Positions 48,349-53,268 are shown, counted from the stretch's first letter. The stretch is DNA of 53,268 nt from Escherichia phage Ecp_YSF (OR327751.1); one strand, 5' to 3'. Made by a program: numbers and translations. The notes: a model not told the origin generated them from the letters alone.

Positions 48349-48420
48349 AGAGCTTTGTAACTAGGTAGTCCGTCTGGTACCAAGACGTGTGAGAACGTTC
48401 GATTCGTTCTACAAAGCTCT
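48349..48420 (+). ncRNA. tRNA-like RNA element TL1 (acceptor/T-arm intact, reduced D arm, non-decoding anticodon-like loop)
   Basis: 11-bp stem 48349-59/48410-20. T arm GAACG-TTCGATT-CGTTC (48393-48409). Arm CGTCT-GGTACCA-AGACG (48371-48387). Lies 14 nt downstream of P8. Confidence 0.45.
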
Positions 48421-48969
48421 TTTCGATGGAATGTTTCCATCATATACATTTATCTTTTAACATAGGCCAAAGGGCCGGAATACTTATTCGCAGAAAAGCT
48501 ATTCACTTGTTATAGGCGATGTATTGGGATGAATTAGAACTAAATAAGCAAGCTGTTAGGGCTGAATAATTAGAGGGTTGTGCCTCATGCTTATGTTAGT
48601 CATTCGAAAATAGGTTTGTGCCACAAGCTGCTGGTGCTCTGAGGAAGTCGGACAAACAGGGCTTAGAGTGGCATAATCCGCACAAAACCGCGCCACCAGC
48701 TATGCCAAAGCAGGTGGATTGGGTGAATGTATTGGGAAGGGTTGCAAAGCCTCTGCGAGCACGGTATCGCGTATAATAAGTGACGTCTGCGCTGCGTGTA
48801 TCGCACCCTAACGGGAGTAACCCTTCGCCAATGCAGTTATCCAGAATTGACACAAACGGTAGGCAGTGGCCCGATTTTCGGCCTTCCTGTGCTACCCTGT
48901 GGCCTGTTTCATGGGCCAAAAGATGAGAAGAGAAGTCACAAACCCCGAATCGAAAATTGGAGAGTTCCT

Positions 48970-49260: not shown

Positions 49261-49547
49261 ACTTACAAGACAAATCTAAAGAAGAGTTGATTGAGATTAT
49301 CCAGAAAGAGCACGAACTCGCTGGCATCACAATCAACTATGAACTCCGGGCAATGCAAGCTGTTGCTTTGGGTCATGGTCTAATGGCTACACTCATTCAT
49401 GCCAAGAATGTGTTAGGCATTGACAACGAAAAATACCAAATTCTGGAGAAAGCTGCGCAAGAGCGGATTTCGCAGTGCTTGGTGACATTAGTTGATTTGG
49501 GAATCGACGCAGAAACTGCGAACAAACGTATCCTACAAGGCCACTAA
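49257..49547 (+). CDS. hypothetical protein (96 aa)
   Basis: TTG 49257 shows TTGA coupling with the upstream stop, and GGAG (49246-49249) lies 7 nt upstream. Confidence 0.5.
   Translation: MNLQDKSKEELIEIIQKEHELAGITINYELRAMQAVALGHGLMATLIHAKNVLGIDNEKYQILEKAAQERISQCLVTLVDLGIDAETANKRILQGH
49480..49502 (+). promoter_or_regulatory. weak promoter-like site inside coding sequence
   Basis: GTGACATTAGTTGATTTGGGA. The core matches at 11 of 16 positions. Confidence 0.25.
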
Positions 49548-49548
49548 A

Positions 49549-50223
49549 ATGTCTTATCATGATGATGACAAAGAGATTGCACTATCAACGTGTAAGCAAT
49601 GGCTCAATGATAATGATGCCGTCTATCTTGCCAAGGAAGATGTTATCATTATGTGGGTCCATTTTAATCCAGAATCGAAGCGCGGTGAGTGGCAACGCTA
49701 CAAGATGAAAGAGGCTTGTCGCATAATTAAAGCCACACGCGCTGGCTTCTCTGCTATGAAATACATCAAGCCAGAGATGCTGATGCTTGCTGCACAGGAA
49801 GAAGAACGTGCATATAAGCAAGCTGTTAAATCTCGTTCAACTGTTCCTCCAGAGTTCTTTAATTTGGAGCGCGCTGGACACTTCAACAATTTAGAAATGT
49901 TGACACTGTGCCTGTTGCAAGAATTAGTTGGAAGAGGACAAAACATTGAAGCTGTTTGTCTTGGAGAACTTATGAAAGAGTTGTTCTCGGCAAAGGGCTT
50001 TGCTGTGCCAAATCGAACTTTACGCTGGAAATTGTTGCGAGCAGTCGCTCAAGAAGCTGGTGTAGTTGTTCGTGACAGAACAAACCGACTCACTGTAACT
50101 GGAGTTGGGCGTTTTGTAGCAATCCAGATTGAGGGTTATGACGAATCAATCATCACTGAACTCACTGTCGATGAGACAAAGGATTTAGTAAATAAAACAC
50201 TAGAACGATTCAATAGATACTGA
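49549..50223 (+). CDS. hypothetical protein (224 aa)
   Basis: First ATG after the upstream stop codon. Confidence 0.55.
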   Translation: MSYHDDDKEIALSTCKQWLNDNDAVYLAKEDVIIMWVHFNPESKRGEWQRYKMKEACRIIKATRAGFSAMKYIKPEMLMLAAQEEERAYKQAVKSRSTVPPEFFNLERAGHFNNLEMLTLCLLQELVGRGQNIEAVCLGELMKELFSAKGFAVPNRTLRWKLLRAVAQEAGVVVRDRTNRLTVTGVGRFVAIQIEGYDESIITELTVDETKDLVNKTLERFNRY

Positions 50224-50247: not shown

Positions 50248-50270
50248 CTGAAACATTAGTTGGATGTGGA
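50248..50270 (+). promoter_or_regulatory. phage RNA polymerase promoter P10
   Basis: CTGAAACATTAGTTGGATGTGGA, with the core matching at 15 of 16 positions. Hairpin at 50220-50240 just upstream. Confidence 0.7.
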
Positions 50271-50346
50271 AAGAGAAAGGCTCTTTAATTTTATCTAAGT
50301 CACGTCATCGTGGCGTGCAAAACTATTCAATATAAGGTATATACAA

Positions 50347-50685
50347 ATGGCTAAGATTGTAACCGTAACTCAGTACGAAGCTAACGATGGTTCCCTGTTC
50401 CTGACCGAAGCAGAGTGTAATGCACACGACTTCAAACTGGAAAACGGTGCTAAAATTGAGAAAGCTGCCGAAGCGTACCTGAACACCGTTGGCGCTATCG
50501 ACCGTTCTCGCTCCATGCAGAAGAACACCATCGAGCAGTTCCTGGCATTCTACCTGCCGTGGGTTGAAGCTGGTGAGCCGGAAGTTGAGCGTACTAAGTT
50601 CGATACTCCGAAAGAAGCCAAAGTTGCTGACGCAAGTGTTGCCGAAGCTGCCGAAGCTGCTGTTGAAGAAGCTCCGGTATTCTAA
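50347..50685 (+). CDS. abundantly expressed acidic protein of unknown function (112 aa; tail ..EEAPVF)
   Basis: Strongly biased, capsid-like codon usage. Has its own promoter, P10. Confidence 0.65.
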   Translation: MAKIVTVTQYEANDGSLFLTEAECNAHDFKLENGAKIEKAAEAYLNTVGAIDRSRSMQKNTIEQFLAFYLPWVEAGEPEVERTKFDTPKEAKVADASVAEAAEAAVEEAPVF

Positions 50686-51583
50686 GTTGCCGATGGCAAA
50701 CTTGAGAGACTAAGCTAAATCGATCTGGCATGCACTGGGAGATCTGCCAGTGCTGCCTTGAATCCCATTCCAGAGTGAGTGGGCTTCAATGAGCATTCTT
50801 GTGATTAGAGTTGGGAGGTAGGCCGATGCCCAAGCTCGTGGCCCAGACAAGAGTGTTCATTGAAGTAGTTTTCTGAGTCTTACGACGGGCCTAAACTGCC
50901 TGGAGTTATTGCGACTGTTTTATTCATTTAAAATAAATGCAAATGATTCTGAAATGCGAGTTGCGGCTTAATTAAATTTAAGTCCTCTCCGTGGTCTTCC
51001 AATCCCACGTAACCAAATTTGGCGCATTGTGGCTTCGAGATGTGATTAATAAATCGGAGCAATAATTAATTTGTATTCTGCGATGCAAAGCAGGCTTAAG
51101 TCCTCCAGTGCGCGTGGGGATGTGACAGAGTACAAACTTAATTATGCAGTTGGATATTTCTAGAGGACGGACGAGCACACTGGAATGTCTTCAATTGGTT
51201 TAGTGTGAGAAGCTATGCCAATTTGAAACGTAACTCCTTGGGGAAGTGCTCCTCTGGATTTCCCTCCACACAGGAATCTCAAGCCTGTGGCAGCGACTTC
51301 GAAGCTGCACTGCGTAACCTAATTCACCCTAAAGTGAGTTGCCCTGAGCATGGAAATAAACTGCTCTAACCGATGGTATCTACAAAGGTAGATTAAATCA
51401 GGTTGCCTGTTGGTACTTGGGTTCAACACCTGCTTGCACTCGCAAAGTAGTGCCTCGTACCTGAGATGAAGTGAGTCGGGACCATCAATCCCACGTTATG
51501 TCAAAACACAGTAGGCGACTCACAGATTCTACAAGCCTCGCAGTTCGGGAAAACCTGCGTTATCAAAACCCCCCCCTCAATTT

Positions 51584-51679
51584 GGACGAGTAGCTCAGAA
51601 GGTCTGCTCCAGAGCTTAGTCAGGTAGAGCAATCTGTTCGACAGATGTGTCGTTGGTTCGAATCCAACCTCGTCCACCA
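51584..51679 (+). tRNA. aberrant tRNA (probable anticodon UCG, Arg) with a 19-21-nt hairpin insertion in the D loop and encoded CCA
   Basis: Acceptor GGACGAG/CTCGTCC. T arm GTTGG-TTCGAAT-CCAAC. D stem GCTC/GAGC enclosing the extra hairpin 51599-51617. The anticodon arm is only 15 nt. Confidence 0.6.
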
Positions 51680-51706
51680 ACTCTCAATAATAAACATGGA
51701 GTCCTT

Positions 51707-51847
51707 ATGGACATTGATGCACTAGACAATTTGGACTTCGGTGCTGCCGAAGAAGCAATTGAAGAACTCAAGAAAAAGCAGGACGAAGAAGCAATCGTTC
51801 CTGGTGCTGGCGATAACGACTGCTCAAGTGGTGCGTGCGCCATCTAA
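51707..51847 (+). CDS. 46-aa acidic peptide with a Cys-rich end (..DCSSGACAI)
   Basis: ATG 51707 lies 5 nt after GGAG. The ORF-track start 51647 lies inside the tRNA. Confidence 0.4.
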   Translation: MDIDALDNLDFGAAEEAIEELKKKQDEEAIVPGAGDNDCSSGACAI

Positions 51848-51855
51848 GGTGATTT

Positions 51856-52092
51856 ATGCAACAGCTTAAATCAATAATTCTTGGCGTCCTGACTGCATTT
51901 GGTATTATCATTGCAGTGTTCCTCAAAGGCAAAAGCTCAGGCAAAGCCGAGGAGCGTCAGGAAGCCACAGAGAAGCAACTAGATTCATTAAAAGAATCTA
52001 TCGAGATTAAATCGCATGTTCAGAAAGAAGTGTCTAGCAGTTCTGATAGCAATGTCGATAGTGAGTTGCTCTCAAAGTGGGTTCGTAAGTGA
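51856..52092 (+). CDS. i-spanin (Rz-like)
   Basis: N-terminal TM segment IILGVLTAFGIIIAVFL followed by charged coiled-coil sequence. Confidence 0.6.
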   Translation: MQQLKSIILGVLTAFGIIIAVFLKGKSSGKAEERQEATEKQLDSLKESIEIKSHVQKEVSSSSDSNVDSELLSKWVRK

Positions 52093-52225
52093 TTATTGCT
52101 TAATTGCACAACCAATCTATTTGGATGTTGCAGAAGTGAAAATCTTATCACGCGAAACCAAAACACAGATTTTAGTCCACAATGAAACGTGGGCACAAAA
52201 GTGTTCGAAACTTACCCGACAGTGA
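52016..52225 (+). CDS. o-spanin (Rz1-like lipoprotein), overlapping the i-spanin gene in another frame
   Basis: Signal sequence plus lipobox LAVLIAMSIVSC. Confidence 0.6.
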   Translation: MFRKKCLAVLIAMSIVSCSQSGFVSDYCLIAQPIYLDVAEVKILSRETKTQILVHNETWAQKCSKLTRQ

Positions 52226-52239
52226 GTGAACATGGCCTA

Positions 52240-52255
52240 GCTAGTTGGTGGTGTA
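52240..52255 (+). promoter_or_regulatory. weak promoter-like site P11
   Basis: GCTAGTTGGTGGTGTA matches the core at 11 of 16 positions. Confidence 0.3.
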
Positions 52256-52546
52256 AAGACTGACCAAGGTGACGACAGCCAAAGTCGAGGGAGTGCGCGA
52301 CTTTAAATAACGAGACTCTAGCCACTTGTGGTATGGCAGGTGTAACTCCTGCAATTGCTCTGGGCATAACAATTAAAATTGCTGCCTCGTATTGAACGCG
52401 AGAAAGTTCAGGTGGTCACTTCCTAGAACAGTGTCCGAGAACACACTCGCCAAAGTGCTTGAGAACGTTAGCTCTGTCTTGCCAGCATTAATGGCACGTT
52501 GGCCGCGTAAAGGCCGCAACCTCAATCATATATAAGGTAGTCTTCT

Positions 52547-52747
52547 ATGGACAAAATTAGCATTCGTGCAATCATTCGTAACGCAATCATTAATAATGAG
52601 GTGCGTACATATCAGTATCAAGAAATTCAGGTAGCTCTAGGTTGTAGCCGACATAAGGCAAAGCAACTTTATTACGCATTTCTGTATAACGCAGGGGATG
52701 CATTTCTTCGCAAGAAGTTGACAGAACCTGATAGCGACCCTTGTTAA
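52547..52747 (+). CDS. hypothetical protein (66 aa)
   Basis: RBS AAGG upstream. Confidence 0.5.
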   Translation: MDKISIRAIIRNAIINNEVRTYQYQEIQVALGCSRHKAKQLYYAFLYNAGDAFLRKKLTEPDSDPC

Positions 52748-52789
52748 TCATCACAGCGTCTGGCCAACGTATCGGCCGCCAAATTCAAT

Positions 52790-52857
52790 GGGATTTTCGT
52801 ATGTACGGGCTTGACCGTGGTGAAACGACCTGACTGGTTCGATTCCAGTGAATCCCA
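52790..52857 (+). ncRNA. tRNA-like element TL2 (acceptor stem plus canonical T arm, degenerate lower half)
   Basis: GGGATTT (52790-96) pairs with GAATCCC (52850-56). T arm ACTGG-TTCGATT-CCAGT (52833-49). The middle 36 nt do not form canonical D or anticodon arms. Confidence 0.4.
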
Positions 52858-53127
52858 CGAACAATGGATTCGTAGAGTTAATTAAACCTGCACGATGGGA
52901 TAGGGATGAAGCATCCGAGGCCGACTGTGTAATTGTGAACTTATCGTTCACCGAATCCACCAAATACCCGGGAGAAAGTGCTGTGGACGATATTGTATCG
53001 TAGGTGGTCGCATTCCACCCTCCCAACTCTTACCAAACAGTTATGCCTCTGTTCAAAAGGCTCAAGAGAGCGTCTGGCATACCGTAGCGATACGGCTTAG
53101 TTGCGCTGATTGTGTTGTGCAGAAAGA

Positions 53128-53268
53128 AAGTTCAGGCTTTCGTTTGGGTTACTCCTCATCCCGAAGTTAGCTGGATTCAAAATCCAGACTATGTTCCTAT
53201 ACACATGAAATATGCAAGTCGAGGGTTCTTAATGTTCAAACATGATGCGAGCATTGAGCGGGTTTATA
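53128..53268. repeat. second copy of the 141-bp terminal sequence
   Basis: Identical to 1-141. Confidence 0.95.

Follow-up and report, generated by a model that had tools for sequence, protein, structure and literature searches.

The window analysed here is one strand of 53,268 nucleotides (nt) from Escherichia phage Ecp_YSF (OR327751.1), a phiEcoM-GJ1-like coliphage (Chaseviridae) whose final 2.6 kb is 94–97% identical to phiEcoM-GJ1-like coliphages (Chaseviridae, Carltongylesvirus). Between its genes lie stretches poor in open reading frames (ORFs; 50690–51700, 52230–52545 and 52750 to the window end, continuing at 142–306), and the nine-letter word AATCCCACG occurs three times in this non-coding DNA. 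An earlier examination of the DNA by itself (the sequence-only reading) had taken the recurrence to mark either copies of one tRNA-like module or a reused recognition or processing site. Our analysis makes it quite probable that the word is no functional unit: three RNA stem-loops with no relation to one another carry the same string on their 3′ sides, each in a different register, in a stable-RNA array with an RNA resembling transfer-messenger RNA (tmRNA) underneath. The features of the array and of its neighbourhood are given below; TL2 denotes a decayed tRNA, and L numbers denote loci that include IMG/VR contigs, L109 being a Chaseviridae-like IMG/VR contig of 53.6 kb.

50757–50765, + strand: T-loop-like remnant TTGAATCCC, directly before the 5′ strand of the closing helix
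50766–50777, + strand: closing helix, 5′ strand CATTCCAGAGTG, inverted repeat with 51176–51187
50784–50865, + strand: long hairpin, an inverted repeat with 19-nt arms (50784–50802 and 50847–50865) that abuts the leader
50866–50938, + strand: leader with UAGUUUUC, GCGAC (50911–15) and the A/U-rich resume context AAAUAAAU with U at −5 and A at −4, identified by family conservation, alignment with L050 and local Rfam matches
50939–50971, + strand: tmRNA-like tag frame GCA AAT GAT TCT GAA ATG CGA GTT GCG GCT TAA, reading ANDSEMRVAA-stop
50966–50983, + strand: helix-5-like hairpin holding the stop codon, GCTTAA (50966–71) with TTAAGT (50978–83), read from the sequence
50990–51022, + strand: H-type pseudoknot; stem 1 CGTGG (50990–94) with CCACG (51005–09), stem 2 CCAA (50999–51002) with TTGG (51019–22)
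51032–51060, + strand: hairpin GCTTCGA/TCGGAGC with the conserved loop GAUGUGAUUAAUAAA (GUGAUUAAUAA), its stems covarying in the family
51176–51187, + strand: closing helix, 3′ strand CACACTGGAATG, from the inverted repeat and the L109 comparison
51471–51523, + strand: copy-2 domain, outer helix GTGAGTC (51471–77) with GACTCAC (51517–23), from the minimum free energy fold
51478–51492, + strand: copy-2 inner hairpin of 4 bp, GGGA (51478–81), 7-nt loop CCAUCAA and TCCC (51489–92), from the same fold
51539–51559, + strand: terminal hairpin CGCAG/CTGCG, CAAGCCU before and UUAUCAAAAC after it, kept across Chaseviridae genera
51584–51679, + strand: tRNA-Arg-like gene with a D-loop insertion of about 21 nt (CAGAAGGTCTGCTCCAGAGCT) and an encoded CCA; Rfam tRNA 27.9 bits over 51613–51668
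52790–52860, + strand: TL2, acceptor GGGATTT (52790–96) with GAATCCC (52850–56), discriminator A52857
52833–52849, + strand: T arm of TL2, ACTGG (52833–37), loop TTCGATT, CCAGT (52845–49)
664–672, + strand: fourth exact copy of AATCCCACG, in coding DNA (GCA GAA TCC CAC GAA)
585–1235: thymidylate synthase ORF (PHROG E = 2e-72; synteny with phiEcoM-GJ1 gp33), which contains the fourth copy
50254–50264, + strand: phage-type promoter core CATTAGTTGGA, the last before the non-coding array and the same as that annotated 'putative phage promoter' in phiEcoM-GJ1
49492–50223 and 50347–50685: two genes of PHROG families of unknown function
51856–52092 and 52016–52225: Rz and Rz1 spanins
52547–52747: small ORF

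Exact copies of AATCCCACG lie, as the sequence-only reading had reported, at 51001–51009 (copy 1), 51487–51495 (copy 2) and 52851–52859 (copy 3), all on the + strand; the 11-mer CAATCCCACGT is indeed common to copies 1 and 2, and CCGTGG is present at 50989–50994 and 52815–52820. The reading had seen no copy elsewhere in the window, which is contradicted by the exact match at 664–672 inside the thymidylate synthase ORF. A genome count of 4 versus 0.27 expected overstates the case because the word was picked after looking, and 292 different 9-mers occur at least four times genome-wide versus about 66 in shuffles. No 9-mer other than AATCCCACG reaches three copies within the 2022 nt of non-coding DNA; a triple 9-mer arises in 4% of dinucleotide shuffles of this DNA. 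Near-copies are not enriched, with 8 sites at up to one mismatch against 9.6 expected. The core AATCCCA has 4 sites in the non-coding DNA versus 0.32 expected, including an additional one at 50761. A repeat search found no direct-repeat family reaching past the 9–11 nt that links the copies.

Conservation in relatives had been named beforehand as the test of the motif, and the relatives do not bear it out. Since the homologous regions of phiEcoM-GJ1 (GJ1), ST32, PO103-1 and PYps3T contain no more than one or two exact copies (1, 2, 1 and 1, respectively), the word is not a conserved site. Copy 1 appears as AATCCCATG in GJ1 and PYps3T, as GATTCCATG in Erwinia phages and as GACTCCTTG in L109; copy 2 as AAT-CCACG in PO103-1, AATCCCGCG in L109, AATCCCATG in Pectobacterium phage PM1 and AATCCCTGC in L166; and copy 3 as AATCCCCCG in PO103-1. 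Every copy varies or is missing in close relatives, and the substitutions differ from copy to copy.

Copy 1 lies in the most widely conserved part of the region (50911–51052), which matches unrelated phages too. Covariation of the H-type pseudoknot was scored in a MAFFT alignment of 32 distinct family members: 92.9% of cells are paired, both sides change in 8 of the 9 pairs and 56 cells are compensatory. None of 500 shuffles was as good, and slid partners pair in 30–67%. Stem 2 occurs as CCGA/TCGG, CCAA/TTGG, CCAG/CTGG, GTCG/CGAC, CTCCA/TGGAG and CTAG/CTAG. Because of this pairing, copy 1 is made up of AA from the end of a stem-2 strand, UC from a loop and CCACG, the 3′ strand of stem 1. The pairing proposed earlier between the upstream CCGTGG and CCACG thus stands for copy 1, where CGTGG at 50990–94 pairs with 51005–09. 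The accompanying description of copy 1 as TL2 minus its T arm does not, because the loop of copy 1 pairs with 51019–22.

The pseudoknot belongs to an RNA with a tag-like reading frame. The tag of E. coli SsrA is ANDENYALAA, and its resume signal requires an A/U-rich context with U at −5 and A at −4 (U85/A86 in E. coli). In the family, AUAAAU stands directly 5′ of GCA, and positions −5 to −1 are invariant in 35 distinct sequences. All 35 tags comprise 10 codons and a stop, beginning with GCA; codon 10 is GCC, GCT or GCG, third positions vary at Ala, Asn and Asp codons, and the remaining two frames hold no constant stop. Twenty different peptides result, among them ANDNVFLAVA, ANDNTFLAVA, ANDDLMMAAA, ANDDVVLMAA and ANEEVYLAVA, and all fit AN[DE]xxxx[AMVI][AVD]A. 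A conventional small ORF was considered and rejected: the AUG frame gives peptides of variable length, and the tag frame has neither a Shine–Dalgarno sequence nor a conserved start. The stop codon lies in a hairpin in relatives as well (for example TAGCC-TAAC-GGCTA). The hairpin at 51032–60 has the stem variants GCCCTGA/TCAGGGC, GCCCAC/GTGGGC, GACGGGAG/CTCCCGTC and CTTCCA/TGGAAG, and its loop keeps GTGATTAATAA.

A long-range closing helix, 11/12 complementary, joins 50766–77 to 51176–87. In L109 its strands are AAATACCTCAG (865–875) and CTGAGGTATTT (1136–1146), with 4 differences from the window that are all compensated on the other strand. Counterparts of the long hairpin are present in L109 and in Kuttervirus phage dinky. 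Within the closing helix, 51076–51106 holds a degenerate partial duplicate of the tag end, helix 5 and stem-1 region, TTCTGCGATGCAAAGCAGGCTTAAGTCCTCC resembling ATTCTGAAATGCGAGTTGCGGCTTAA..AAGTCCTCTCC. The loop of the long hairpin (50802–50818) shows 17 nt of complementarity (88%) with 53019–53035 in the third non-coding stretch, 2.2 kb away; we discarded this candidate long-range pairing, which was not seen in L109, the one relative compared.

Copy 2 falls in a different structural setting, a 3′ domain of the non-coding stretch that also holds copy 1. It lies in CGGGACCAUCAAUCCC, where 51487–95 comprises the last two loop bases of the inner hairpin, the 3′ strand of its stem and three unpaired bases. 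The 16-mer CGGGACYATCAATCCC is kept in PM1, L109 and L166, and the three bases after UCCC vary. The outer helix covaries, as TTAGCG/CGCTAA in PM1, TTGATATT/AATATCAA in L166 and GTGAGTC/GGCTCAC in L109. A pairing of the loop CCAUCAA with an upstream GAUGG was rejected, as it shows no covariation in L109. In that contig the tag and copy-2 domains are separated by an insertion of two ORFs (1147–1640), the first with its Shine–Dalgarno sequence GAGG in the 3′ strand of the closing helix.

The terminal hairpin at 51539–59 takes the place of a T-arm-like hairpin (GCCGG..CCGGC + CACCA) in the Klebsiella-phage versions. This hairpin, GCCGG-AGAUCAGCA-CCGGC followed directly by CACCAC, is conserved in L003 (about 1788–1812) and many relatives and absent from the window; one stem variant is compensated on both strands (GCAGG/CCTGC, L022), and the whole resembles a T arm running straight into ACCA, the acceptor strand being absent. 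We rejected it as a microhelix that could be charged: it has no G3-U70, reads CAUCA in L096 and is missing from the window. Klebsiella-phage versions also carry a bipartite-helix module of about 18 bp, up to three times around the tag element (L003 1573–1690; several copies in L018), of the form CACAAC-AGG-TAAGAGCAYTG ... CAGTGCTCTT-TCC-GTTGTG with a variable insert. Its outer part covaries (ACTATC/GATAGT), and the inner helix often carries a U-U or C-U mismatch at position 3.

The tRNA-Arg-like gene, which marks the 3′ limit of the tmRNA-like RNA, has an acceptor GGACGAG/CTCGTCC and a T arm, both located by a T-arm/acceptor scan, and a UCG anticodon whose stem leaves room for a loop of just 5 nt. 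Its GJ1 homologue is entered in GenBank as a tRNA-Arg that 'may contain an intron' and is called tRNA-Leu(cag) by ARAGORN, which makes no call in the window. The 5′ acceptor strand GGACGAG recurs exactly at 51169–51175, 409 nt upstream of this gene and beside the closing-helix strand 51176–87. We rejected this second copy as an acceptor strand of a tmRNA, because it is downstream of the tag in the wrong topology; its chance expectation is about 0.05.

Copy 3 belongs to TL2, in which a perfect acceptor stem of 7 bp stacks directly on a T stem of 5 bp whose loop has 7 nt (TTCRANN). The word (52851–59) covers acceptor bases 67–72, the discriminator (N73) and the CG of a mutated CCA, the 3′ end reading A-CGA. 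Its earlier assignment to the acceptor 3′ strand and discriminator is borne out by alignment, fold and a T-arm/acceptor scan. TL2 aligns along its length with a tRNA-Cys(GCA) at the same locus in PM1 and L109 (47 and 46 bits), with an identical T arm and shared flanks; in this alignment its CCGTGG is the anticodon arm and its ACG corresponds to N73-C-C. The CCGTGG/CCACG pairing that had been suggested here as well falls away, as an A-to-C change in PO103-1 breaks it and leaves the acceptor stem intact.

Neither an ARAGORN call nor an Rfam tRNA match at E ≤ 10 was obtained for TL2; its central 38 nt form a single irregular hairpin, and shuffled sequences fold as well as the whole element (z = −0.33). 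Of 20 matching GenBank records, only PO103-1 and flopper contain TL2 (absent from about 18). In the GJ1 and ST32 alignments a pair of CAATGG repeats flanks the gap, which is a clean indel of about 75 nt; an Erwinia phage has an annotated tRNA-Ser at this place. The tRNA-Cys alignment, the lack of a tRNA-finder call and the absence from most relatives together mark TL2 as a decayed, dispensable tRNA of tRNA-Cys ancestry. Like the pseudogenes and remnants of phage tRNA clusters, it keeps the 7-bp acceptor stem and a canonical T arm (ACTGG-TTCGATT-CCAGT); it differs from tRNAs in its unrecognisable D and anticodon arms and in the change of CCA to CGA.

Other tRNA-like pieces lie nearby. In a separate ORF-poor stretch, 48349–48425 forms a tRNA-like element that no tRNA finder calls; its T arm is GAACG-TTCGATT-CGTTC, and its 'acceptor' helix (AGAGCTTTGTA/TACAAAGCTCT) is extended to 11 bp. 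Fragments that look like T arms or tRNA 3′ ends occur at 52940–52965 (GTTCACCGAATCCACCAAAT) and as the remnant at 50757–50765, which suggests that the non-coding stretches are littered with decayed tRNA and tmRNA pieces.

These settings would account for the recurrence. The core AATCC(C) is enriched because the non-coding DNA is made of tRNA- and tmRNA-derived sequence; it would simply be the look of a T-loop/T-stem 3′ half or of a C-rich 3′ stem strand, and its extension to nine identical bases would be a coincidence of this strain. Of the idea that the recurrent motif marks a module or site, then, what remains is that the region is built of structured tRNA-related RNA; the word itself is unconserved.

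Expression of the array can be outlined from the same features. No copy of CATTAGTTGGA follows within 50265–53268, from which we infer readthrough: the array, a set of stable-RNA genes between protein-coding genes, would be read through from the promoter at 50254. Scans for sigma-70 promoters and terminators gave counts no higher than the shuffle expectation. Host RNases would then excise the tmRNA-like RNA at the long hairpin (50784–50865), an RNase III-type substrate and possibly a processing stem, and at the tRNA 5′ end at 51584 (RNase P). The window ends, 1–141 and 53128–53268, are identical over 141 bases and represent either terminal redundancy or an overlap from circular assembly.

The relation of the tag RNA to tmRNA was assessed with covariance models. 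Rfam searches of the window at gathering cut-offs found no family, and a permissive search gave local matches to tRNA and tmRNA models only. The weak tmRNA matches, at 50864–51026, score 20.5 bits against a gathering threshold of 47 (RF04321) and 14.6 against 50 (RF01849). The models tmRNA_permuted, alpha_tmRNA, beta_tmRNA and tmRNA gave local matches on the tag region in the window and in about ten relatives, the best being alpha_tmRNA in Klebsiella phage Magnus (E = 3e-5) and the best score in a relative 31.1 bits. Judged from sequence and predicted structure, the main RNA is a homologue of the coding part of a permuted-type tmRNA, without the tRNA half.

The closest system is the permuted two-piece tmRNA (SsrA) of the alpha-proteobacterial type (RF01849, RF04321; L050, L015 and L026; phage Melnitz, PMC9004378), for which genuine examples called by ARAGORN in viral contigs served as comparison. 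Shared with it are the resume context AAUAAAU|GCA AAY GA, a 10-codon tag that resumes at GCA without a start codon and has a hydrophobic, Ala-rich end (Ala-x-Ala), the stop in a hairpin and an H-type pseudoknot directly after. Upstream, the leader UAGUUUUC is the analogue of the tmRNA D-loop motif GGUUUCGA (D-loop-like GUUUUCG), and the long hairpin takes the position of the intervening hairpin in genuine permuted tmRNA genes such as L050. The linker GUAACAGAAU of permuted tmRNAs also occurs in Klebsiella phage Magnus (L002). At the position of pseudoknot 1, which in tmRNA lies between helix 2 and the tag, no pseudoknot was identified; the window has an A/U-rich stretch there and relatives have a simple hairpin, CGGGUUU-UUAG-AAACYG.

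What separates the two is the tRNA half: the RNA has no 7-nt acceptor 5′ strand before the D-loop motif, no 7-bp acceptor stem with G3-U70, no T arm, no acceptor 3′ strand and no 3′ ACCA for AlaRS to charge. In L050 the gene order is T arm, acceptor 3′ strand, ACCA, long hairpin, GGGGUUG, ACCUG, GUUUCGA..., tag and pseudoknot; in the window it is the remnant at 50757–65, the long hairpin, directly UAGUUUUC..., tag and pseudoknot. By this comparison the window lacks the 12 nt in which the acceptor 5′ strand would lie, and neither T arm nor acceptor strand nor ACCA is present intact. With both strands of the acceptor stem lacking, there is no chargeable tRNA-like domain.

Neither ARAGORN, nor the Rfam covariance models (which matched the tag region only), nor our own scan for T arm and acceptor pairs in tmRNA topology within 900 nt found a tRNA-like domain. 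Default ARAGORN called no complete tmRNA in the window or in 50 family loci. At 80% thresholds it proposed a permuted tmRNA at about 50528–51062, which we regard as spurious because its tRNA domains fall in the upstream ORF and in the long hairpin. The only tmRNA-like topology in our own scan, GCUGUUU...AAACGGC-U-CCA in Kuttervirus phage dinky, was also rejected: it competes with the long hairpin, has U3-G70 and borrows its T arm from a separate tRNA-like unit. That 126-nt unit of Kuttervirus and Taipeivirus (L006 1373–1498; L002 2365–2490) reads GCCGTTA ... TTGGG-TTCGACT-CCCTA-AAACGGC-T-CCA and lies 850 nt from the tag in Klebsiella phage Magnus. In dinky it is followed by a second tRNA-like element with an acceptor helix of about 18 bp, and ARAGORN calls neither.

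The tag element is widespread. The compact version of Klebsiella phage VLCpiS13b retrieved 799 phage records by blastn, including Felix O1-like phages, Kuttervirus, Taipeivirus, P7, SSU5 and several groups of 47–73 kb, and a pattern scan of IMG/VR added dozens more members. Of 5426 complete E. coli genomes, 561 carry the P1/P7 version (ANDDLMMAAA), nearly always on P1-like plasmids; among the matches listed for these versions there is no RNA annotation, and most show no feature at all. In P7 (L004 1170–1420) the element lies between Op(ban) and a tRNA-Asn, in the leader of the C1-repressor-controlled ban operon.

Its annotation has been erratic. In two genome announcements a tmRNA (ssrA) called by ARAGORN was reported in Felix O1 and Citrobacter phage Moogle and said to be absent from Salmonella phage Mushroom (PMC4319497, PMC4392139). 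The reported gene is probably the same tag element, and Mushroom does carry the element, at 99% identity. The one default call that we reproduced, a permuted tmRNA with the tag ANDNVFLAVA in the related phage Mordin (L172), was discarded: its tRNA domain combines a tRNA remnant with part of a tRNA-Lys gene. Since the 5′ tRNA domain lies inside tRNA-Lys and three tRNA genes are spanned, this call is an artefact set off by a real tag; the tag element also accounts for the inconsistency of 'tmRNA' calls among Felix O1-like genomes. In 232 Felix O1-like records no sampled row carries an annotation for it, and a literature search, which did not cover the P1 genome paper, found no account of the tag family other than these ARAGORN reports.

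In the Felix O1-like group, as in that of the Klebsiella phages, the element immediately precedes tRNA-Arg(UCU). Roche and Sauer reportedly showed in 1999 that the supply of tRNA-Arg(UCU) governs stalling and tagging at rare AGA codons, and the neighbourhood fits this theme of ribosome stalling. In Felix O1 strain FO1a (L171 1435–1516) a tRNA(UCU) without a D arm (Rfam 31.7 bits) stands about 75 nt downstream of the tag element; its acceptor CGGGGCG/CGCCTCG carries the alanine identity elements G3-U70, A73 and an encoded CCA, and an HNH endonuclease gene comes after it. UAB_Phi87 has an ordinary tRNA-Arg(UCU) at this place.

What the RNA does can be stated only in graded terms. We tentatively consider, at clearly less than even odds, that RNAs with tag, pseudoknot and hairpin form a functional, horizontally spread class of phage RNA, a tmRNA 'message half' without a tRNA-like domain of its own; the class spans Chaseviridae, Felix O1-like, Vi1-like and P1/P7 phages and several sipho- and podovirus groups. 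That the tag looks translated means that an acceptor domain would be needed. The RNA could be the coding piece of a split tmRNA whose acceptor piece acts in trans, which we judge rather doubtful; a phage tRNA-like RNA would then donate the acceptor, and products of stalled ribosomes would receive a phage-specified tag. Comparably doubtful is a decoy that diverts or blocks the host trans-translation machinery (S1, SmpB–tmRNA–ribosome complexes) during infection, and another structural or regulatory role is a further option. Copies of tmRNA in phages have been recorded in surveys mainly from mycobacteriophages, Bacillus phage G and marine phages (PMC4131195, PMC11915505, PMC9004378). The 'TLD-only' tmRNA of Mycobacteriophage DS6A is likewise a phage-borne tmRNA half and has been proposed to interfere with trans-translation and not to perform it (PMC4131195, PMC11915505). 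DS6A keeps the tRNA-like domain without a tag, whereas the family described here has the opposite half, tag and pseudoknot without a tRNA-like domain.

An RNA that lacks both acceptor strands might instead be the decaying relic of a complete phage tmRNA with no present function. Upstream, TTGAATCCCATTCCAGAG resembles the decayed remains of a T arm, acceptor strand and ACCA, and the partial duplicate of the tag end at 51076–51106 is degenerate. Against a relic stand the retention of the module in about 800 phage records of unrelated families and in the E. coli genomes with P1-like plasmids, compensatory changes in its stems, and a tag that is always 10 codons long with synonymous variation. As wide retention, compensatory stems and a constant tag length are not what neutral decay leaves, we consider a relic unlikely.

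Three further explanations concern the word itself. As a reused determinant for a nuclease, an RNase P/Z-like enzyme or a CCA-adding enzyme, it would define RNA 3′ ends; all three non-coding copies are on the transcribed strand at the 3′ side of a helix, the one in TL2 covers the place where a tRNA 3′ end is made, and the triple copy together with the enrichment of CCCACG speaks in the same direction. Yet the word changes in every close relative, each copy differently, so that none is invariant within the genus, and TL2 as a whole is missing from most relatives. Copy 1 is explained base by base by a covarying pseudoknot whose sequence is free in other phages, each copy occupies a different structural register, and the fourth copy is in coding DNA; we regard such a site as very unlikely.

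Descent of the copies from one duplicated tRNA-like module, with copy 1 as a TL2-like element without its T arm, fares marginally worse and is highly improbable in our judgement. CCGTGGT precedes copies 1 and 3, the hairpins of copies 1 and 2 loosely resemble T arms (GG..UUCCAAUCC and GGGA..CAAUCCC), and the region is rich in T-arm-like fragments. The copies are nevertheless joined by no longer repeat; TL2 aligns with a tRNA-Cys at the same locus in other genera, and copy 1 matches, position by position, the tmRNA-type post-tag pseudoknot of dozens of phages that have other words there. A DNA-level signal (a promoter or terminator of the phage polymerase, or a replication or packaging site) is scarcely credible, even in a phage that encodes a T7-like RNA polymerase with short conserved promoter words, because the promoter word CATTAGTTGGA is unrelated and has no copy inside the non-coding array and the motif is one-stranded, unconserved and contained in covarying RNA helices.

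Several observations weigh against our preferred explanation, a coincidence of strings over a stable-RNA array. A triple 9-mer inside 2 kb is still unusual (p about 0.04), three of the five genomic copies of CCCACG are in the non-coding DNA, and beyond the word itself copies 1 and 3 have the upstream CCGTGGT in common and two copies the 11-mer. From sequence alone a strain-specific function of the word stays conceivable. For the tmRNA-like RNA, the homology consists of sub-threshold Rfam scores (20–31 bits against gathering values of 47–50) together with the anatomy; the closing helix is backed by two divergent lineages only, the helix-5-like hairpin and the hairpin at 51032–51060 were judged by eye, and the transcription and processing steps are putative.

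For this phage, then, AATCCCACG should not be taken to mark processing sites or a repeated module. The wider interest lies in the RNA beneath copies 1 and 2. Its coding part keeps, under apparent selection, the resume signal, a degradation-type tag of 10 codons, a hairpin around the stop codon and helices that covary; trans-translation needs a tRNA-like domain, and this RNA is without one. It is essentially unannotated in well-studied phages (P1/P7, Felix O1, Vi1-like and GJ1-like) and present in about 10% of complete E. coli genomes. If it is functional, then either the acceptor domain need not be covalently attached for a tag template to work, or phages manipulate ribosome rescue by an RNA decoy.

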